Of a DNA stretch of 64,000 bases, positions 1 to 53,011 are shown piece after piece. A program made the position numbers and the translations under genes. The stretch comes from an uncultured Cardiobacteriales bacterium (GTDB lineage Bacteria; Pseudomonadota; Gammaproteobacteria; CAYWWW01), in contig CAYWWW010000006.1 of assembly GCA_964462205.1 (NCBI GenBank), positions 52,717-116,716 of the forward strand, in the 5' to 3' direction. How positions within the stretch are numbered: the stretch's first letter is position 1; each line of letters begins with the position of its first letter. The notes below the pieces were generated by a model. It ran no database searches, was not told the origin of the DNA, and saw nothing but the letters and a program-made list of their open reading frames with translations.

Positions 1-487
1 AAGGCGCTAAGCAGTTAGTGGTACAAGAGGCATTGGAAATCACCGTGTCGGTGGCTTTCAAAACCTGATGATTGACACCATAAACAATGGTGGCATCCAC
101 ATCTTCACCGCCTGGCGCGGAAATAATAACTTTTTTGGCACCGGCTTTCAGGTGCATGGCTGCTTTTTCTTTGCTGGTGAAAATACCCGTACATTCATGT
201 ACTACGTCAATATTTAATTCACCCCAAGGTAATTTGCTGGGGTCACGTTCGGCAAAAACACGGATTCTATCGCCATTGACCATCATGCTATCGCCTTCCA
301 CTACCACTTCGGCATTGAAACGGCCATGAACGGTGTCATAACGGGTTAAATGTGCGTTGGTATTGGCATCACATAAGTCATTGATGGCAACAATTTCCAC
401 TTCCCCTTTGCGGTGTCCTTCGTATAAGGCACGCAAAACATTGCGGCCAATACGGCCATAACCATTGATTGCGACACGAATTGCCAT
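1..487 (-). CDS. gap: Glyceraldehyde-3-phosphate dehydrogenase, N-terminal part (runs off the window edge)
   Basis: Reverse-strand translation begins [23 protein letters not shown], the classic GAPDH NAD-binding N-terminus. Start codon (CAT on + strand) at 485-487. Confidence 0.85.
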
Positions 488-599
488 AAATTGCTCCTTT
501 TTCGTTTATTGTATTGATAGATATAAAAAAGCCGGCTACCTTGATCATTCTAAAAGCACCGGCAACTTTTAGTGAGGCGAATATTTTTAAGGCAAACTT

Positions 600-2597
600 T
601 TAGGATGCTGCCAACATTTTTTCAGCGATAGCAACGACATTTTCAACTGTAAAACCAAAGGCTTTGAATAAATCTTTGGCCGGTGCCGACTCGCCAAAAC
701 GATCCAAACCTAAAACCTGGCCATCCAAACCGACGAAACGATACCAACCAGCGGTGGCACCCGCTTCAATGGCCAAACGCTTGCTACCGACTGGCAAAAC
801 TTTTGCTTGATAATCAGCATTTTGCGCCAAAAAGCGCTCCACGCAAGGCATGGAAACGACTTGCACCGCATAGCCTTTTTCACGCAATACTGCCGCCGCT
901 TGCATGGCCAACGCCACTTCCGAACCCGTCGCCAACAGAAGCATTTGTGGTGCTTCGGCAGCACTCAAGATATAACCGCCACGCGCGATTTCGGCAACTG
1001 CCTCGGCATTATGTGGCGGTTGCGGCAAGTTTTGGCGGGTCAAGGCCAAAGCCGAAGGACCGTCCTGACGTTCAATGGCACATTGCCAAGCCACGGTGGT
1101 TTCAAGGTCATCGGCAGGTCGCCAAACTTCTAAATTGGGAATCAAGCGCAAACTGGCGGTTTGTTCAATCGGTTGATGGGTGGGACCGTCTTCGCCTAAG
1201 CCGATGGAATCGTGGGTCAACACATAGATGACGCGCTGACGCATCAACGCCGACATCCGAATGCCATTGCGAGCATAATCGCTGAAAATCAAGAAAGTGC
1301 CGCCGTAGGGAATAAAACCACCGTGCAAGGCAATGCCGTTCATAATCGCCGCCATACCAAACTCGCGCACACCGTAATGCAGATAATTACCCTGCATCTT
1401 TTCCGGCGTGATGGATTTTGAACCTTTCCAATCGGTATTATTCGAGCCGGTTAAATCGGCAGAACCGCCGAGCATTTCAGGAATAAAACTGCAAAAGCCG
1501 TTCAAGGCATATTGGGAGGATTTACGGGTGGCATTGTCAGCGGTGCGCGCCAAGGTCGCGCTCAAAAAGGCTTGGGCTTTTTCAGCATAATCAGCAGGTA
1601 ATTCGCGACGGATGACGCGACGCTCAAATTCAGCAGCCAATTCAGGATAGGCCGCTTGATAGCTTTCAAAAACTTTATTCCATTCACTTTCAAGCACTTG
1701 ACCACGGGTTTTGGCATCCCAATGCTGATAAATCGCTTCAGGGATTTCAAACGGCGGATAATGCCAAGCCAAGGCTTCACGGGTGGCGGCCACTTCGGCA
1801 GCACCTAAAGCCGCGCCGTGGACATCATGGGTGCCGGCTTTATTGGGTGAGCCTTTACCGATGATAGTGCGGCAGCAGATCAAGGTCGGCTGGTCGGTAT
1901 TGGCGCGGGCTTCGGCAATGGCAGCCTTGAGCGCTTCGGCATCGTGACCGTCCACATTGGCGATCACCTGCCAACCATAGGCGCGAAAACGGCCTGGCGT
2001 ATCGTCGCTAAACCAGCCTTCGACATGACCATCAATGGAAATACCATTGTCATCCCAAAAAGCGATCAATTTACCGAGCTTCCAGGTGCCGGCCAAAGCA
2101 CAGGTTTCATGCGAAATGCCTTCCATCAAACAACCATCGCCCAAAAAAGCATAGGTGTAATGATCCACAACGGCATGACCATCGCGGTTAAATTCAGCGG
2201 CTAATAATTTCTCGGCCAAGGCCATGCCAACGGCATTACTGATGCCTTGACCCAAGGGACCGGTGGTCGTCTCCACGCCTGGCGTGTAGCCAAACTCAGG
2301 ATGACCGGGGGTTTTGGAGTGCAACTGACGGAAATTTTTGAGTTCTTCTAGCGGTAGGTCATAACCGGTTAAATGCAGCAGGGAATAGATCAGCATGGAG
2401 CCATGGCCGTTGGACAAAACAAAGCGGTCGCGATTAGGCCAAGCCGGATTTTGCGGATTATGTTTTAAGTAATCATTCCACAATACTTCGGCAATATCGG
2501 CCATGCCCATCGGCGCACCGGGATGCCCGGATTTGGCTTTTTCCACCGCATCCATGCTTAAGGCGCGAATGGCATTGGCAAGTTCAGTACGAGTCAT
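600..2597 (-). CDS. tkt: Transketolase
   Basis: 665-aa ORF. N-terminus [40 protein letters not shown] and the GDGCLMEG thiamine-PP motif are typical of TktA. Confidence 0.95.
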
Positions 2598-2858
2598 AAG
2601 AAAACTCCTTAAAATTTCTTTTTAACTACATGATTTTATTGGATTTTTTGCGACGCATCGCAAAATAAATCGCTGTATTGTGAAGCAATTGCCCAAGGTG
2701 AGCAAGTGCTTGGGTGAGTTCCTTTGACCTTCGGCAAATTTTGCTAATCAGAAAAAGTTTGCGTATGCTTAGCAAAGATTTTTCATAAAACAATTCAAGG
2801 ACGCTTGAATTTTTCTTCATTGAATCAATTTCTTAAAAATAACCCCCAAGGAGAAATC

Positions 2859-4010
2859 ATGTCCAATCGCTATCTATTTACCTCTGAATCCGTATCAGAA
2901 GGTCATCCCGATAAAATGTGTGATCAGATTTCCGATGCCGTGCTTGACGCGATTTTGGCGCAGGATGCCAATGCCCGCGTGGCCTGCGAAAGTTTAACCA
3001 AAACCGGCCTGGTGCTTTTGGCCGGTGAAATCACCACTTCGGCGATGGTGGACTATGAAAAACTCGCTCGCCAAGTGGTGCGTGACATCGGTTATACCGA
3101 CTCAGGCATGGGTTTCGATGCCGAAACTTGCGCGGTGTTAACGGCTATCGGCAAACAATCGGCGCATATCGCGCAAGGCGTGGATCGCGAAGACCGCAAG
3201 GCCCAAGGTGCCGGCGACCAGGGCTTAATGTTTGGTTTTGCTTGCAAAGAAACCCAAAATCTGATGCCAGCGCCCATTCAATACGCGCATCGCTTGATGG
3301 AAAAGCAGGCGGAAGTGCGCAAAAACGGCCAATTGCCTTGGCTGCGTCCCGATGCCAAAAGTCAAGTGACCTTTATTTATGAAAGTCATACACCGATAGC
3401 TATTGATACCGTTGTACTTTCTACCCAGCACGCGCCAAGCGTCAGCAATAGCATGATTGAGGAAGCAGTGCGCGAAGAAATCATCAAAGCGGTTTTACCT
3501 GCCGAATGGTTAAGCGAAAAAACCCGCTATTTGATCAATCCCACTGGTCGTTTTGAAATCGGCGGTCCTTTGGGGGATTGCGGTTTAACCGGTCGGAAAA
3601 TCATCGTGGACACTTACGGCGGCATGTCGCGGCATGGTGGCGGTGCCTTTTCTGGCAAAGACCCCTCGAAAGTGGATCGCTCTGCCGCTTATGCAGCACG
3701 ATATGTCGCCAAAAACATCGTGGCCGCCGGATTGGCCGAGCGTTGCGAAGTGCAGATTTCCTATGCGATTGGTGTTGCCGAGCCGACCTCGGTTTTGGTT
3801 GAAACCTTTGGCACAGCGCAAGTTCCAGAAGAAAAAATCAGCCAAGCGGTGCGCGATGTCTTTGATTTACGTCCTTATGGCATCGTTGAGATGCTCAATC
3901 TGTTGCGTCCCATTTACCGCGAAACCGCGAGCTACGGCCATTTTGGCCGCGACCATTTCCCCTGGGAACACACCGACCGTGTGGCCGCGTTACAAAAAGC
4001 CGTGGGCTAA
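2859..4010 (+). CDS. metK: S-adenosylmethionine synthetase
   Basis: [31 protein letters not shown] is a near-canonical MetK N-terminus. AAGGAGA ribosome-binding site sits just upstream of the ATG at 2859. The upstream in-frame extension to 2805 is rejected. Confidence 0.95.
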
Positions 4011-6878: not shown

Positions 6879-8345
6879 TCAATTTTCAGGACAAGCCAAA
6901 TTGATCAAGGCGGCGTTTTGCGCGCTACGCAGACGCTCGATCATTTTTTCCCGCGCCAAGTCCGTGTCAATGCTGATAATTGTCCGTGGTGCGCGACCAA
7001 TACCCGCATCGGCAAAAGTGGTTTTACCAACGGTGGGATCAAAAGTAATCGGGTCATACGGTGTCGCACTTTGCGCTAAACCTGGATTTAATTGATCAAC
7101 GGCAACAAACTGATTTTCTTGATTTTCAATGACACTCGGCTCTAAAAGCACCAAAGCGGCGATAATATCCCAGAGACGAATGACAGCATCCAAGGCAAAA
7201 TCGCCGCCTTGATCGCCACCTTCAAATTCCCGAATAGATTTCAATAATTCCGCCGTATAACAGGCCTCTGGCGTGGCACCAGCGGCCGCCAAAGCCTCTA
7301 TCGTCGCCAATTGCACCTTGGCATCGTCGGTGGCATTGGTTGGCACCAGCGTGGTGGGAATCAGTTTCAGCGCTAAATCTCCCAAGGCTTGTTGCGCCGC
7401 TGCTGGGTCTAAAAAGATATTAAATTCCTGATGGGTGCTGAAATCACTGTCACAATTAAAGCTCGGATGCGAGAAAATATTTCCGCCTAAATTCAAAGTT
7501 TTATCGCCAAAACATGCAGCTTGACGATCCGCCGTAAAAGGCGGCAAGCCTTGAAAACCACCACCCATGATCAGCACTTGTTCGATTTTTTGCACTTGAT
7601 CGTCTGGCAATTTGGCTAAGAAACGCGCCAAAGTCGTCAGTTTGCCGGTGTTGATAATGGTCACCGCTTGGCTTTCTTTGGCCAATTGTTCGAGCATTAT
7701 TTCCTCAGCTAAAACAAAGTTAAATGAGGAACCATTATTGGCACGATAATGATAATTTGCTTGACTAGCACGCGGAATCAGATGATCAGTGTTATATAAG
7801 GTGCTGCCATTGTCCCGCCACGGTCCGGGTACAAACTGTCCATACAAGTTCACGCCCATGACATTGCGCCGTTCCAAGTTCCACTCACCGGTATTAAAGT
7901 CTTGGGAATTCGGCAATTGATAGTCTTTTTTTCCTGGCAGGCTTTGATTATCTTCCACATCACTGCCGCTTAATTCGCCATTGGCACCCAAGGCGATTTC
8001 TTCTTGGGCAAAATAAGCACCACGAATAATTGCTACATCCCGATTCCCCAGCCATTCCAGAATGTTATAAGCATTATTTGCACTGGAAGCAACGGCATTA
8101 AAAGAGTCTTCCACAACCAAAAGTTTAATCTGATAATTGACATCTTTGGCCAAGAGCATCAAGGCAATCGCATCATCAAAATTATTAAAATCTCCTATCC
8201 AAATTAAAGGTTTAGCATTAGCAGCTTTTTCGGCGACCAAAGGCGTTGGCGTACTTTCTGCTTGATCATTGTCATCATCACAAGCAACCAAAATAAACAA
8301 AGCCGAAATGAACACCAGCAACAGCATAAAATAAAATTTTTTCAT
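6879..8345 (-). CDS. Lipoprotein with a nucleoside hydrolase-like (IU-nuc-hydrolase fold) domain
   Basis: Signal peptide with an LVAC lipobox. IWIGDFNNFDDAIALMLLA resembles the nucleoside hydrolase DxDxxxDDAxAL N-terminal motif but is partly degenerate (N in place of D). At 488 aa it is longer than classic IunH. Confidence 0.45.
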   Translation of the reverse strand: MKKFYFMLLLVFISALFILVACDDDNDQAESTPTPLVAEKAANAKPLIWIGDFNNFDDAIALMLLAKDVNYQIKLLVVEDSFNAVASSANNAYNILEWLGNRDVAIIRGAYFAQEEIALGANGELSGSDVEDNQSLPGKKDYQLPNSQDFNTGEWNLERRNVMGVNLYGQFVPGPWRDNGSTLYNTDHLIPRASQANYHYRANNGSSFNFVLAEEIMLEQLAKESQAVTIINTGKLTTLARFLAKLPDDQVQKIEQVLIMGGGFQGLPPFTADRQAACFGDKTLNLGGNIFSHPSFNCDSDFSTHQEFNIFLDPAAAQQALGDLALKLIPTTLVPTNATDDAKVQLATIEALAAAGATPEACYTAELLKSIREFEGGDQGGDFALDAVIRLWDIIAALVLLEPSVIENQENQFVAVDQLNPGLAQSATPYDPITFDPTVGKTTFADAGIGRAPRTIISIDTDLAREKMIERLRSAQNAALINLACPEN

Positions 8346-8503
8346 CTTTTTTCCTTAAAATTACCTCAATTATTAAACGTTCAACCAGCGACGGACACCA
8401 GGAACGGCGAAAATACTAACAAAAGGCCATTACCAAGATATGACAAAGTAGGAAATTTTATTTATGGTAAGGCAGTGGTTGATCGTTAAAGTGGTAAAAA
8501 TTT

Positions 8504-9844
8504 ATGCAAAAAACCTGGCAAGAACTTGATTTACAACATCTTTGGCATCCCTGCACCCAGATGCAAGACCATGAATGGCTGCCCTTACTTTCGATAGTTT
8601 CCGGCCAAGGGGTGTGGCTCTATGACGATAAAAATAAACGCTATCTTGATGCCATCAGCTCTTGGTGGGTCAACCTTTTTGGCCATTGTCACCCGTATAT
8701 TTCGCAAAAAATTTACGAACAACTGCAAACCCTAGAACACGTTATTTTGGCTGGTTGCAGTCACCAACCGGCGGTGGATTTGGCGGCACGCTTAGCGGCA
8801 AAAAGCGGCTTACCACGCTTATTTTTTGCCGATAATGGCTCGTCAGCGGTGGAAGCGGCCTTAAAAATGAGCTTTCATTATTGGCGGAATTTAGGCCAAG
8901 AACGAAAATTTTTCGTCGCTTTATCGAATAGTTATCATGGAGAAACCCTGGGTGCCTTGGCTGTCGGCGATGTTGGTTTATATCGTGATCTGTATCAACC
9001 TTTATTACTTGAACGCTTAATTGTGCCTTCCCCCGATTATTACCAAGGCGAAACGGGCGAAAGCGCTCAATCGGTGGCAGAACGGCAATTTAAAATATTG
9101 GAAAATCTTATAAAACAACGACATCACGAGATTGCCGCGGTGATCGTTGAACCTTTGGTACAATGCGCAGGTGGGATGCGGATGTATGACCCGCATTATC
9201 TAAACTTATTAGACCAGGCCTGCAAAAAATACCAAGTTCATTGGATTGCCGATGAAATCGCCGTCGGTTTTGGTCGAACCGGCAGTTTTTTTGCCTATCA
9301 ACAAGCCGCGGCGGTGCAACCAGATTTTCTTTGCTTAGGAAAAGGCTTAACTGGTGGTTTTTTACCCTTGGCGGTAGTCTTAACCAAAGAGCTTATTTAT
9401 CAAGCCTTTTATGATCGTTATGAGACCTTAAAAGCCTTTTTACATTCACATAGTTATGCCGGTAATCCTTTGGCCTGCGCGGCAGCCAATGCGACTTTAG
9501 ACCTTTTTGAAACTGAAGCAGTTTTGGAAAACAATCAAAAACTGAGCCAACAAATGTGGCAAAGCATCGCGCATTTGCAGGCGCATCCGAATGTCGGCGA
9601 TATTCGGCAAACCGGCATGATTTTAGCCATTGAGATGGTCAAAGATAAGGCCAATAAAACGCCATTTCCCTGGCAGGAGCGGCGCGGCTTGCGGGTCTAT
9701 CGTTATGGTTTGGAACGGGAAATGCTCTTGCGACCTTTAGGCAATGTCAGCTATTGGCTACCACCTTACGTCATCACCCCGGAAGAAATCACACAATTGG
9801 CCGAAGTAACCGCAGCCGGAATTATCAAAGCCGTGGAGGAGTAA
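8504..9844 (+). CDS. bioA: Adenosylmethionine-8-amino-7-oxononanoate aminotransferase
   Basis: 446 aa class-III aminotransferase. The N-terminus (HLWHP..., YDDKNKRYLDAISSWWVNLFGH) is typical of BioA. Confidence 0.85.
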   Translation: MQKTWQELDLQHLWHPCTQMQDHEWLPLLSIVSGQGVWLYDDKNKRYLDAISSWWVNLFGHCHPYISQKIYEQLQTLEHVILAGCSHQPAVDLAARLAAKSGLPRLFFADNGSSAVEAALKMSFHYWRNLGQERKFFVALSNSYHGETLGALAVGDVGLYRDLYQPLLLERLIVPSPDYYQGETGESAQSVAERQFKILENLIKQRHHEIAAVIVEPLVQCAGGMRMYDPHYLNLLDQACKKYQVHWIADEIAVGFGRTGSFFAYQQAAAVQPDFLCLGKGLTGGFLPLAVVLTKELIYQAFYDRYETLKAFLHSHSYAGNPLACAAANATLDLFETEAVLENNQKLSQQMWQSIAHLQAHPNVGDIRQTGMILAIEMVKDKANKTPFPWQERRGLRVYRYGLEREMLLRPLGNVSYWLPPYVITPEEITQLAEVTAAGIIKAVEE

Positions 9845-21136: not shown

Positions 21137-21209
21137 GGGCGCGTAGCTCAGTTGGTAGAGCATCACCTTGACATGGTGGGGGTCGTTGGTTCGAGTCCAG
21201 TCGCGCCCA
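21137..21209 (+). tRNA. tRNA-Val (anticodon GAC)
   Basis: Cloverleaf with GGGCGCG/CGCGCCC acceptor stem, anticodon loop UUGACAU, and T-loop UUCGAGU. Confidence 0.85.
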
Positions 21210-23036: not shown

Positions 23037-23113
23037 TGGGGTGAATGACGGGGCTCGAACCCGCGGCCACAGGAATCACAATCCTGCGCTCTACCAACTG
23101 AGCTACATCCACC
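23037..23113 (-). tRNA. tRNA-His (anticodon GUG)
   Basis: Reverse complement gives G-1 GUGGAUG ... anticodon loop UUGUGAU ... CAUUCAC C CCA, with CCA encoded. Confidence 0.85.
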
Positions 23114-23175: not shown

Positions 23176-23249
23176 CGTGCCTGGCAGGACTCGAACCTGC
23201 TACCCTCGGCTTAGAAGGCCGATGCTCTATCCAGATGAGCTACAGACAC
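23176..23249 (-). tRNA. tRNA-Arg (anticodon UCU)
   Basis: Reverse complement gives GUGUCUG acceptor stem, anticodon loop CUUCUAA, and T-loop UUCGAGU. Confidence 0.85.
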
Positions 23250-23338: not shown

Positions 23339-23412
23339 TCGGGGTAGCAGGATTCGAACCTACGGCCTTCAGTACCCAAAACTGACGCGCTACCAAACTG
23401 CGCTATACCCCG
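23339..23412 (-). tRNA. tRNA-Pro (anticodon UGG)
   Basis: Reverse complement gives CGGGGUA acceptor stem, anticodon loop UUUGGGU, and T-loop UUCGAAU. Confidence 0.85.
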
Positions 23413-49324: not shown

Positions 49325-49401
49325 CGGGATGTAGCGCAGCCTGGTAGCGCACCAGTCTGGGGGACTGGTGGTCGCAGGTTCAAATCCTGTCATCCCGACC
49401 A
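49325..49401 (+). tRNA. tRNA-Pro (anticodon GGG)
   Basis: CGGGAUG acceptor stem, anticodon loop CUGGGGG, T-loop UUCAAAU, and a 3' CCA encoded. Confidence 0.85.
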
Positions 49402-49613
49402 TTTTTTCCTTAAGCTGCCTTTTTGCTTCTGCCTTTCTTGTCCATTTCACAATTCCCTTGTTTTTCCACCAAACAACTTTTCTGGCCAAGGAACCAACAC
49501 CAACGCCGCCAAGGCGGTTGCCAGCAGCCAGCCGCATTGCGTACCATGCGCCTTTGGCCGCCAAATACTTTGGCAATGTTTAGAAAAACACCCGCTTAAC
49601 TTGGGAAACGTCT

Positions 49614-49736
49614 ATGCCGCTTCTTTATCTCTTATTGCTTACCTTAGCCGTGTCGAATTTGGTCGGCTGTGGTCAAAAAGGTGATCTGTACTTACCGAAA
49701 AGCACTACGTCCACTTTTATGCACAAGGCTCTATGA
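49614..49736 (+). CDS. lptM: Small LptM (YifL)-like lipoprotein, 40 aa, absent from the ORF track
   Basis: MPLLYLLLLTLAVSNLVGCGQKGDLYLPKSTTSTFMHKAL has a signal peptide, LVGC lipobox and the conserved GQKGDLYLP. Its stop overlaps the lysA-dapF start. The E. coli locus is yifL-dapF-yigA. Confidence 0.6.
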   Translation: MPLLYLLLLTLAVSNLVGCGQKGDLYLPKSTTSTFMHKAL

Positions 49737-51808
49737 CTTTTCATTATAAAAATCATCAACTTTTCTGTGAAGCACTGGCTTTAGAAACTTTAGCCACCGC
49801 GCATGGTACGCCCTTGTATGTCTATAGCGCCTCAGAAATTATTCAAAACTATCAAGCCTTTGATCAAGCATTAACTGCTGTACCGCATCATCTCTGCTAT
49901 GCTGTCAAAGCCAATGCCAACCTCTCGATTTTGGCGTTATTGGCCGAACAAGGGAGTTTTTTCGATGTGGTATCTATTGGCGAATTACAAAAAGTGGAAA
50001 CCGCTGGCGGCAAAGCCGCACAATGTATTTTTTCTGGCGTTGGCAAAGGCCTAGAGGAAATTGCCTATGCCTTAGAACAAGGCATCTTGACTTTAAACAT
50101 TGAATCGCTAGACGAATGGCAAGCTATTGAACAAGTTGCTAAAACCCACGGCGTAACCGCACCTGTGGCCATCCGCGTCAATCCTGATATTGATGCCAAA
50201 ACCCACCCTTATATTTCAACTGGCCTGAAAGAAAATAAATTTGGGATTGGGATGCCGGAGGCCGAAAAACTCTATCATCAGCTCAACGACAGCCAACACG
50301 CCGACATTCATGGTCTGGCGGCGCATATCGGTTCGCAAATGCTCGACCCGGCACCCTACCAAGCCGCTGCCCGCCGCCTACTCAGCCTCGCCGAGCGTCT
50401 TCAAGACAGAGGCATAAAACTCAAGCATCTGGATGTCGGTGGCGGCTTTGGCATTCGCTATCAGCAAGAACAACCACCCACGGCAACGGCTTGGTTTGCA
50501 CCACTATTAGCCGATTTTGCCGCTGCTGGTTTAACGATCTTGATTGAACCTGGCCGTGCGCTGGTTGGCAATGCCGGCGCACTGCTCACCCAGGTACGCT
50601 ATCGCAAGGAAAATCAAGGCAAACATTTTGCCATTGTGGATGCCGCGATGACGGAATTGCTGCGTCCCAGTCTCTATCAAGCACACCATGAAATTTTGCC
50701 GCTCAAGGCCGCCTTAGCCGAAAGTTATCCGCCGCTGGATATTGTTGGCCCGGTCTGCGAAAGCGGCGATTTTTTAGGCAAAAATCGGCAAATTCCCGCT
50801 GAAGTTGGCGATTTTTTAGCGATCTTAAGCACTGGTGCCTATGGCGCGGTCATGGCCTCGCAATACAATGCCCGACCGCTGGCTGCGGAAGTTTTAGTCT
50901 ATAAAAATCAAGCAGCAGTGATACGGCAACGGCAACCCTTGGCCGATTTATGGCGCTACGACACCTTGGCCAAACCTTGGACCAGCGCCGAAAAGCCGTT
51001 GCGTTTTCGCAAAATGCAAGCCTTAGGCAATGATTTTATTGTTATTGATCACCGTGAGCCGCGAGACTTCAAAACAGCAGACTGGCAAAAACTTGCCGAC
51101 CGGCATTTCGGTGTTGGTGCCGATCAGATTTTGCTGGTGGAAAAAAGCGCTGTCGCGGATTTTCGCTATCGCATCATCAATGCCGATGGCTCGGAAGTCG
51201 GCCAATGCGGCAACGGTGCGCGCTGTTTTATGGAATTTTTACGGCTGGAAGGTATCAGTCAGGCCGATACCGTGCGTGTTGAAACCTTAAGCGGCGCGAT
51301 GCTTCTGCATCGGGATGCCAAAGGAAATACTCGTGTGGACATGGGCTTAGCGCGTTTTGCGCCCAAAGCAATTCCCTTGGCGGTCGCCGAAGAACAAGCG
51401 GTTTATACCTTAAGCCTTGACGGTCAAGCACTTGACTTTCATGCGCTTTCCCTGGGGAATCCCCATGCGGTGTTCAAAGTCGAAGACGTAGATTTTGCGC
51501 CCGTCCAACAGCTCGGTGCGCGGCTTTCCGTACATCCGCTGTTTCCCGAACGTGCCAACATCGGTTTTATGCAGATCATTGACCACAACACTTTGAAATT
51601 GCGCGTATTTGAACGCGGTGCCGGGGAAACTTTAGCCTGTGGCAGTGGTGCCGCCGCCGCCGCGGTGATCGCCATACGCTTTTTTGGCGCGCACAGTCCC
51701 GTTCAGGTACAGCTACCTGGCGGCCGCTTAGAAATTTTCTGGGATGGCGGCGCGGTGATCTTGTGCGGGCCGGCCAGCAGCGTCTTTTCAGGAGAAATCG
51801 TTTTATGA
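49733..51808 (+). CDS. Apparent bifunctional diaminopimelate decarboxylase / diaminopimelate epimerase fusion (LysA-DapF)
   Basis: Residues 1-~410 align with LysA. Residues ~422-691 align with full-length DapF (LRFRKMQALGNDFIVID versus E. coli MQFSKMHGLGNDFMVVD; GQCGNGARCF active site). No stop codon between the two domains. Confidence 0.75.
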   Translation: MTFHYKNHQLFCEALALETLATAHGTPLYVYSASEIIQNYQAFDQALTAVPHHLCYAVKANANLSILALLAEQGSFFDVVSIGELQKVETAGGKAAQCIFSGVGKGLEEIAYALEQGILTLNIESLDEWQAIEQVAKTHGVTAPVAIRVNPDIDAKTHPYISTGLKENKFGIGMPEAEKLYHQLNDSQHADIHGLAAHIGSQMLDPAPYQAAARRLLSLAERLQDRGIKLKHLDVGGGFGIRYQQEQPPTATAWFAPLLADFAAAGLTILIEPGRALVGNAGALLTQVRYRKENQGKHFAIVDAAMTELLRPSLYQAHHEILPLKAALAESYPPLDIVGPVCESGDFLGKNRQIPAEVGDFLAILSTGAYGAVMASQYNARPLAAEVLVYKNQAAVIRQRQPLADLWRYDTLAKPWTSAEKPLRFRKMQALGNDFIVIDHREPRDFKTADWQKLADRHFGVGADQILLVEKSAVADFRYRIINADGSEVGQCGNGARCFMEFLRLEGISQADTVRVETLSGAMLLHRDAKGNTRVDMGLARFAPKAIPLAVAEEQAVYTLSLDGQALDFHALSLGNPHAVFKVEDVDFAPVQQLGARLSVHPLFPERANIGFMQIIDHNTLKLRVFERGAGETLACGSGAAAAAVIAIRFFGAHSPVQVQLPGGRLEIFWDGGAVILCGPASSVFSGEIVL

Positions 51809-52482
51809 ACGAAGCTGAAGTGTGTCAATATCTTGAAAATAATCCTGATTTTCTGCTTAAACATCCCGAAGTCTTGGCAAAACTGGAGTTATCCTTCAGT
51901 CAATCCGGCCTACCGTCGCTGCCGCTGTTGCGACTACAACAACTCCGCAGCCGCTTGGACGATTGTCAAAACGCCTTGCAGGGGGAACGGCAAAAGCAAG
52001 ACCTGCACAACCGCCGCTGCCGCGCCATGCAGCAGTTAGCGATAGAATTTTTGTATATTCAAAAAGTTGAAGAGCTGGTGGACAGCATTGATAGCATCTG
52101 TAGTGATGAAATGTCGGTGAGTAAAACCGTGCTGCGCTTTTGGCAAGCCGCGCCCGGCATTCCGGCCTCGTATCTCTTGCCGAAAATCAGCCAAAGTCCG
52201 CTCTTGCACCGCTTGGATCACGATGGCTTTTTTTGGGGTTCTCCGCCAAAAGCCGAGAAAAATCTCTTGGTTGCACAAGGTGATAACTTTGATAGTTTTG
52301 TTATGGCCGCCTTGAGCGATGCCCAGGAACATACCGTTGGCTTATTGGTTTGTGCAGGCCGCGATGCCACTTTATTAAATCAAGAACTGGATCGACCTTT
52401 TTTACGTTTCTTTCGGGATTTGGTTCGTCAAATGCTGATCAAATGCCTGCATCTCAATGACTTGGAACTCGGAAATGACTAA
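51805..52482 (+). CDS. yigA: DUF484 family protein (YigA-like)
   Basis: [24 protein letters not shown] matches the YigA N-terminus. Located downstream of dapF, as in E. coli. Confidence 0.7.
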
Positions 52483-53011
52483 TTTTCATGGCACCACCAT
52501 TCTTGCCGTGCGGCGCGGCCAAGACTTTGCCTTAGGCGGCGATGGCCAAGTAACCCTGGGCAATATCAAAATCAAAGGTAATGCTAATAAAATCAGAAAG
52601 CTGCACCAGGGAAAAATTATCGCTGGTTTTGCTGGCGGCACTGCCGATGCTTTTACTTTATTTGAACGCTTTGAAGCAAAACTTGCTGATTTTCAAGATC
52701 TTAAACGTGCCGCTGTCGAACTCGCCAAAGATTGGCGCAGCGATAGAGTTTTGCGCCGACTCGAAGCCATGCTGTTGCTGGGCGATGCCAATTATACCTT
52801 ACTTTTAAGTGGCGCTGGCGATGTTTTAGAACCTGATCAAGGGGTTATCGGTATTGGTTCTGGTGGTGCTTATGCGCAATCCGCCGGTTTAGCACTGTTA
52901 AAACATAGTGCTTTGACTGCTGAAAAAATTGTCGAAGAAAGTTTAACCATCGCCGCGAGTCTTTGTATTTACACCAATAATAATTTCACTATCGTCAATT
53001 TAGCCGCTTAA
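52475..53011 (+). CDS. hslV: ATP-dependent protease subunit HslV
   Basis: [43 protein letters not shown] is the HslV Thr-protease N-terminus. Confidence 0.95.

Follow-up and report, generated by a model that had tools for sequence, protein, structure and literature searches.

The stretch of DNA examined here, 64,000 nucleotides of contig CAYWWW010000006.1 from an uncultured Cardiobacteriales bacterium (hereafter, the window), carries a gene in which the coding sequences of two lysine-biosynthesis enzymes, diaminopimelate (DAP) decarboxylase (LysA) and DAP epimerase (DapF), are joined into one. The fused lysA::dapF gene lies between an lptM gene and a DUF484 gene (Table 1). Upon re-translation it was found to contain one stop codon only, the terminal one, and stops occurred across the junction in both other frames. 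The encoded protein consists of a complete LysA and a complete DapF with a linker of about 13 residues between them. A reading made from the sequence alone (the sequence-only reading) had described a continuous 691-residue frame in which a LysA domain ending at about residue 410 runs into a full DapF domain; both statements were confirmed, and every sequence detail it gave proved to be accurate. A protein 100% identical to that of the window is present in public data (P0001), on an NCBI contig of 124,912 nt and in a Logan assembly of SRR7048221. The gene encodes a natural in-frame LysA–DapF fusion, which is real and, as described below, conserved.

Table 1. Coordinates of the fused gene, its parts and its operon neighbours (positions in the window; residues of the fused protein in brackets)
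Feature	Position	Strand	Description
lptM (yifL-like) small lipoprotein gene	49614..49736	+	First gene of the operon; open reading frame of 40 residues, lipobox LVGC; Pfam LptM_cons
Fused lysA::dapF gene	49733..51808	+	Single open reading frame with ATG start, 691 codons and TGA stop
LysA domain	49745..50962 (5-410)	+	Predicted meso-DAP decarboxylase dependent on pyridoxal phosphate (PLP); TIGR01048 equivalog
Linker TLAKPWTSAEKPL	50963..51001 (411-423)	+	Sole stretch outside both equivalog matches
DapF domain	51002..51799 (424-689)	+	Predicted PLP-independent LL-/meso-DAP epimerase; TIGR00652 equivalog
DUF484 (yigA-like) gene	51805..52482	+	Pfam DUF484, 48.1 bits

The N-terminal part of the protein matched the NCBIfam lysA model TIGR01048 with 477.8 bits (cutoff 297.9), and the match extended over nearly the whole model (positions 4 to 416/417). 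Pfam placed Orn_Arg_deC_N at residues 34-278, together with Orn_DAP_Arg_deC, and the LysA chains 4xg1 and 3n2b in the PDB were matched with E values of about 1e-122. The conservation of catalytic residues was read from two alignments of fused proteins, one with 9 sequences and one with 18. In both of them K59 (in YAVKAN), H198 (in HIGSQ), the glycines GGG236-238 and EPGR272-275 were invariant, and so were C342-E343-x-x-D346 (CES in the LysA part of the window protein) and Y378. We take K59 to be the PLP-binding lysine, and HIGSQ, GGG, EPGR and CE(S/T)xD to be hallmark motifs of the LysA family. Both the model score and the motifs assign this part to LysA and predict decarboxylase activity for it.

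The C-terminal part matched the NCBIfam DapF model TIGR00652 with 270.8 bits (cutoff 114.65) over positions 2 to 268/270 of the model. The Pfam family PF01678 (DAP_epimerase) was found in two stretches, the first starting from residue 425, and the DapF chains 8qzy, 4ijz and 1gqz in the PDB aligned over their full length (E values from 1e-78 to 1e-68). In pairwise alignment with E. coli DapF (5ygu, 4ijz), the motifs QCGNGARC (C492) and ACGSGA (C636) show no difference; in the fused proteins C492 is invariant and C636 is at least 90% conserved. These cysteines correspond to the catalytic pair of the family, Cys73 and Cys217 in the E. coli/Haemophilus influenzae numbering. With a full-length model match and both cysteines in place, the part belongs to DapF and its epimerase activity is predicted.

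The junction appears to preserve traces of how the two genes were joined. Met1 of E. coli DapF (PDB 4ijz/5ygu) falls exactly opposite Leu423 (TTG, 50999-51001), and the sequence after Leu423, RFRKMQALGNDF, matches QFSKMHGLGNDF of the E. coli protein, in agreement with the sequence-only reading that the initiator methionine of DapF had been replaced and the N-terminal residues retained. Comparison with the C-termini of unfused LysA proteins (e.g. P0010, ending in DETIPF) places the ancestral lysA stop codon near residue 415-417, leaving about 6-7 codons of former spacer between it and the old dapF start. By this comparison, the linker is made of the old LysA C-terminal tail, the lost stop codon, the old spacer and the old DapF start.

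An independent copy of the same gene was found on a 60-kb contig (locus L008) of the Joint Genome Institute (JGI) metagenome 3300040982. The sample is a Yellowstone hot-spring mat of 44.2 °C and pH 8.3 (PMC9600594). The protein encoded there, P0002, is a fused orthologue of 691 residues, 85% identical to that of the window, and the gene order around it is the same: thrS-infC-rpmI-rplT-pheS-pheT-ihfA-merR-tRNA-Pro(GGG)-lptM-fusion-DUF484-hslV-hslU. The linker of the orthologue reads TLAKPWTPAVKTL; the junction DNA of the two differs by synonymous and non-synonymous changes and by no insertion or deletion, and codon 423 is CTG in the orthologue. The number of synonymous substitutions per synonymous site (dS) between the two genes is about 1.2 (Nei–Gojobori), so the open frame at the junction has persisted through roughly one change per synonymous site. 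The ratio of non-synonymous to synonymous rates (dN/dS) is 0.074 for the whole gene; the LysA part gives 0.062 and the DapF part 0.097, values comparable to the 0.093 of the neighbouring DUF484 gene. Both halves of the fusion are under strong purifying selection.

These data bear on whether the locus really comprises two genes, with a stop codon or frameshift missed near positions 50960-51014 by faulty sequencing or assembly. The window protein occurs in one cluster only, as its single member, most of the other fused homologues are likewise singletons from single contigs, and the Logan contig SRR7048221, which reproduces P0001, possibly derives from the same reads as the NCBI contig. However, P0002 comes from another organism and, with 15% protein divergence and the dS given above, has the same 691-residue frame and a stop-free junction; that the same error was made twice independently at the same spot is not credible. 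Moreover, the old DapF start is a leucine codon in both genes, so that a separate dapF would be without a normal start. An artefact is therefore extremely improbable, and the missed stop or frameshift for which the sequence-only reading had proposed to inspect the junction is ruled out by the fused orthologue from a separate metagenome.

A single bifunctional polypeptide of 691 residues is, in our judgement, the likely product of this gene, rather than two separate proteins, although several observations weigh against it. No chain with both domains was found in a search of PDB sequences, no model for a LysA–DapF architecture in an NCBIfam scan, and no description of such a fusion, nor protein or enzyme data on one, in a full-text search of the literature, in which the matches mentioning "fusion" concern tags, LysC–LysA or DapF–RppH. 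In an AlphaFold2 monomer model built from the alignment of 9 fused sequences both domains fold (mean predicted local distance difference test score, pLDDT, 81.8), and the predicted template modelling score of 0.60 indicates no confident inter-domain geometry and no reliable docking of the domains. The span of the genome examined is the 64-kb window; it contains no second lysA or dapF, and a second stand-alone copy of either gene may lie outside it. Such a copy would matter if one domain were a decaying, non-catalytic passenger and the true enzyme were encoded elsewhere, as gene fusions sometimes precede the loss of one domain. This is very improbable: both domains are full length and score far above the equivalog cutoffs, the catalytic residues of both are intact, and the low dN/dS of each part at such a dS is that of a sequence under strong constraint. 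Finally, Met428 (ATG at 51014) is conserved and initiation there is possible, which together with the TTG codon located exactly at the old dapF start position raises the possibility that the frame is fused and the enzymes are nevertheless separate, by internal initiation at Met428 or Leu423 or by cleavage of the linker. Low pLDDT values (below 50 at residues 403-408, and means of 50 and 69 for the two ten-residue blocks of 401-420) predict a flexible linker, which could be accessible to proteases. However, Met428 lies inside KM(H/Q)GLGNDF, a near-universal DapF motif that accounts for its conservation without any role as a start codon, and a DapF begun there would lack the family-conserved residues R-F-R-K of the first beta-strand. 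The TTG codon is CTG in the orthologue and was thus not kept as a potential start. In neither species is there a purine-rich motif resembling a Shine–Dalgarno sequence ahead of Leu423 or Met428, whereas a clear AGGAG is found before the next gene; when the gene was scanned for promoters and terminators, matches were about as many as expected by chance, and none lay at the junction. We consider separate enzymes unlikely and favour the single bifunctional chain.

The sequence-only reading had also suggested a database search for further fusions. When 1.84 billion representatives clustered at 50% identity were scanned exhaustively with HMMER, the best 150 matches listed contained at least 10 two-domain proteins of 676-730 residues (P0001, P0121-P0125, P0130, P0134, P0153 and P0174), and further homologue searches over 5.8 billion clusters added P0002-P0009 and the truncated P0270. 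Thus, the billions of proteins in the databases include at least about 18 LysA–DapF fusions other than that of the window. All of the fused proteins are singleton clusters and are either without a name or called "diaminopimelate decarboxylase". Apart from P0002, the full-length fusions (P0003-P0009, P0121-P0125, P0130, P0134, P0153 and P0174) are 676-734 residues long and 31-48% identical to that of the window. They share with it the order of domains and the conserved catalytic residues, and differ from it in having unrelated linkers, with 13-33 residues between anchor columns; among the fused proteins the linker is common to P0001 and P0002 only.

The other fusions are independent events and do not form one family with that of the window and P0002. 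For nearly all fused proteins, the sequences closest in the LysA domain are unfused LysAs; P0001 is at a distance of 0.15 from P0002, and next to it come unfused proteins at 0.66-0.70. With P0002 set aside, over 100 unfused proteins come nearer to the window protein, in both domains, than any other fusion does, and all 119 retrieved unfused DapFs (119/119) outrank every other fused protein in the DapF domain, where the best unfused proteins are 54-57% identical to the window's and the other fused proteins at most 50.5%. Genomic contexts differ as well: one fusion (L010) lies in the canonical order cyaY...lptM-fusion-DUF484-xerC-hslVU, and another (P0008, at L009) is followed by dksA, with a thiamine pyrophosphokinase gene upstream, in a non-canonical setting. 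Because unfused homologues are closer in both domains, linkers are unrelated and contexts differ, the sequences indicate that LysA–DapF fusion arose several times independently, where lysA adjoins dapF, and that the version in the window goes back to a lineage-specific event common to at least two species.

Two candidates for a closer relationship were considered and rejected. P0121 shares the N-terminus FRKMQALGNDFIVID and might have belonged to the same fused clade; its DapF domain, however, is 48% identical to that of the window, below all 119 unfused DapFs, and KMQALGNDF occurs in unfused DapFs too. P0374 (424 residues), the top match in a search with the DapF domain alone, is not a partial fusion: it contains no LysA part and has an internal duplicated DapF segment. 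In its gene (L014, positions 1893-3167; contig k141_312191 of the European Nucleotide Archive) a segment of about 137 residues (about 100-233) occurs twice, the copies being about 90% similar, which is probably due to the assembly collapse of strain variants, the alternative being a real internal duplication. The contig of P0008 (GCA_964651735.1, CAZYYU010000001.1) carries several large open reading frames of about 400 residues without a Pfam match (1-4000 and 7717-9018) and looks like that of an unusual lineage. Another kind of LysA fusion was met in P0202 (663 residues), in which a complete LysA is followed by SH3_16 and an NlpC/P60 cell-wall peptidase domain; this mix of domains hints at a link between the recycling of peptidoglycan peptides and the formation of lysine.

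The neighbours named in the sequence-only reading, lptM upstream and yigA downstream, were both recovered, the former by a match to Pfam LptM_cons (38.1 bits, E = 1.2e-9) and the latter by the DUF484 match in Table 1. The stop codon of lptM overlaps the start of the fusion gene (ATGA), with the same open reading frame and overlap in L008, and the TGA of the fusion gene overlaps the ATG of DUF484 in the same way, which makes these genes a tightly coupled operon. An AGGAG motif lies 9 nt upstream of the DUF484 start (upstream sequence CAGGAGAAATCGTTTTATG), and the Logan and JGI contigs call DUF484 at the equivalent start. The search for the promoter of the operon in the spacer of about 210 nt before lptM (49402-49613) gave no more than a weak 9/12 match resembling a sigma-70 promoter, at 49518-49547.

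A tRNA-Pro(GGG) gene (49325-49401) is located between a MerR-family gene and lptM, and is conserved in L008. Downstream, DUF484 runs into hslV with a 26-nt overlap (52457-52482; DUF484-hslV region 51805-53011). The xerC gene is absent after DUF484 in the window and in L008, and is present there in L010, L012 and L013. Elsewhere in the window there is a cluster of four tRNA genes, one on the forward strand (21137-21209) and three on the reverse strand (23040-23112, 23176-23249 and 23339-23412); an Rfam scan of the window gave tRNAs only.

Relatives found on genome contigs are at most 52% identical and have lysA and dapF as separate genes. In L002, dapF directly follows lysA after 8 nt; in L003, the two are 214 nt apart and DUF484 comes next. 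Thiolapillus brandeum (L012) has the order lptM-lysA-methyltransferase-dapF-DUF484-xerC, and in a hydrothermal-vent contig (L013) the order is small open reading frame-lysA-x-dapF-DUF484-xerC-hslV-hslU. A published reconstruction (Price, Arkin and Alm, PLoS Genet 2006, PMC1480536) treats lysA-dapF as an operon of the ancestor; its authors concluded that E. coli, once it had gained lysR-lysA2, deleted lysA from this operon and kept the flanking genes. Judged by these gene orders, lptM-lysA-dapF-DUF484 is the ancestral gammaproteobacterial arrangement, which the window has kept, and the E. coli state is derived. Since the window has the ancestral order, nothing was inserted at this locus. The sequence-only reading, which had proposed an insertion of lysA into a dapF locus of the E. 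coli kind, has the direction of change reversed and was not supported by the gene order of relatives or by the published reconstruction. The gammaproteobacterial synteny and the best matches of the two domains, which are sulfur-oxidiser and Ectothiorhodospiraceae-like proteins for LysA and Methylococcales proteins for DapF (54-58% identity), place the host among the gammaproteobacteria.

The fusion then probably came about in a few small steps. In a gammaproteobacterial lineage with the ancestral lptM-lysA-dapF-DUF484 operon the stop codon of lysA would have been lost, and the short intergenic spacer would have happened to be in frame. Subsequent drift would have changed the dapF ATG to a leucine codon, TTG in the window and CTG in the orthologue. 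Loss of the stop codon would suffice to fuse the genes, because unfused lysA genes adjoin dapF with as little as 8 nt between them, as in L002.

Lysine synthesis ends with two reactions: LL-DAP is epimerised to meso-DAP by DapF, and meso-DAP is then decarboxylated to L-lysine by LysA. The ribosome would make one chain of 691 residues, about 76 kDa by our estimate, with an N-terminal decarboxylase and a C-terminal two-cysteine epimerase, and both activities would reside in this polypeptide. The C-terminal DapF domain would yield meso-DAP, which the N-terminal LysA domain would decarboxylate to L-lysine; the order of the domains is that of the genes and the reverse of that of the reactions. The main consequence of the fusion is likely to be the obligatory 1:1 co-expression and the co-localisation of the two enzymes, with at most a leaky, proximity-assisted transfer of meso-DAP. 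That the fusion couples the two reactions, as proposed in the sequence-only reading, is a plausible idea. Strict channelling is doubtful because meso-DAP is normally also the substrate of MurE for peptidoglycan, and wall synthesis would be starved without another source of meso-DAP.

A stronger interpretation is that the tether acts as a channel or proximity route committing LL-DAP to lysine, or creates a new higher-order assembly, and that the recurrence of the fusion reflects a selective advantage; we regard this as rather doubtful. If a channel did operate, flux at meso-DAP, where the routes to lysine and to peptidoglycan part, would be partitioned physically, in a lineage with lysA in a constitutive operon. 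The parent LysA and DapF enzymes are homodimers, and joining them would, if an assembly of this kind exists, force a higher-order structure with altered kinetics or regulation. Repeated independent origin would in that case speak for selection and not for the neutral loss of stop codons.

Each of the two enzymes is an antibiotic target, and both are employed in engineering lysine production. Artificial scaffolds of lysine-pathway enzymes have already been built for flux purposes (e.g. PMC12206723), and a natural, conserved chain of DapF and LysA would offer a ready-made test of the effect of tethering on flux partitioning. The locus also provides a clean example of the conversion of a tightly spaced operon pair into one gene, with the same fusion recurring independently. 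For annotation, the names matter: where such fusions are unnamed or called "diaminopimelate decarboxylase" only, pathway reconstruction would wrongly report dapF as missing.

Compared with known systems, the locus is closest to the unfused lptM-lysA-dapF-DUF484-xerC operon (TIGR01048 and TIGR00652) of the Thiolapillus brandeum type, with which it shares gene families, order and flanks. The closest stand-alone homologues are 53-58% identical to each domain of the window protein. Unlike these stand-alone operon genes, the window has no lysA stop, no dapF start codon, a 13-residue linker in their place and no xerC after DUF484. The bifunctional DapF/glutamate racemase of Chlamydia (NF038284; PMC5885031) is a protein of the DapF family described as bifunctional, but both activities share a single DapF fold and there is no additional domain; the window protein, which scored 100.2 bits with NF038284, below the cutoff of 350, is not a member. 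In LysC–LysA (aspartate kinase/diaminopimelate decarboxylase, NF006515), LysA is naturally fused with another enzyme of its pathway; Salpingoeca rosetta is also reported to have such a fusion, lysAC (bioRxiv 10.1101/2020.06.28.176636). The window protein is not a member of that family: it matched NF006515 with 233.9 bits (cutoff 802) at model positions 495-859 only, that is, the LysA half. The partner of LysA in LysC–LysA is aspartate kinase, the first enzyme of the pathway, whereas in the window it is the immediately preceding one. Rare and apparently undescribed as an architecture, the LysA–DapF fusion is nevertheless of an ordinary kind, in which neighbouring genes for consecutive enzymes of a pathway are joined, and is analogous to LysC–LysA.

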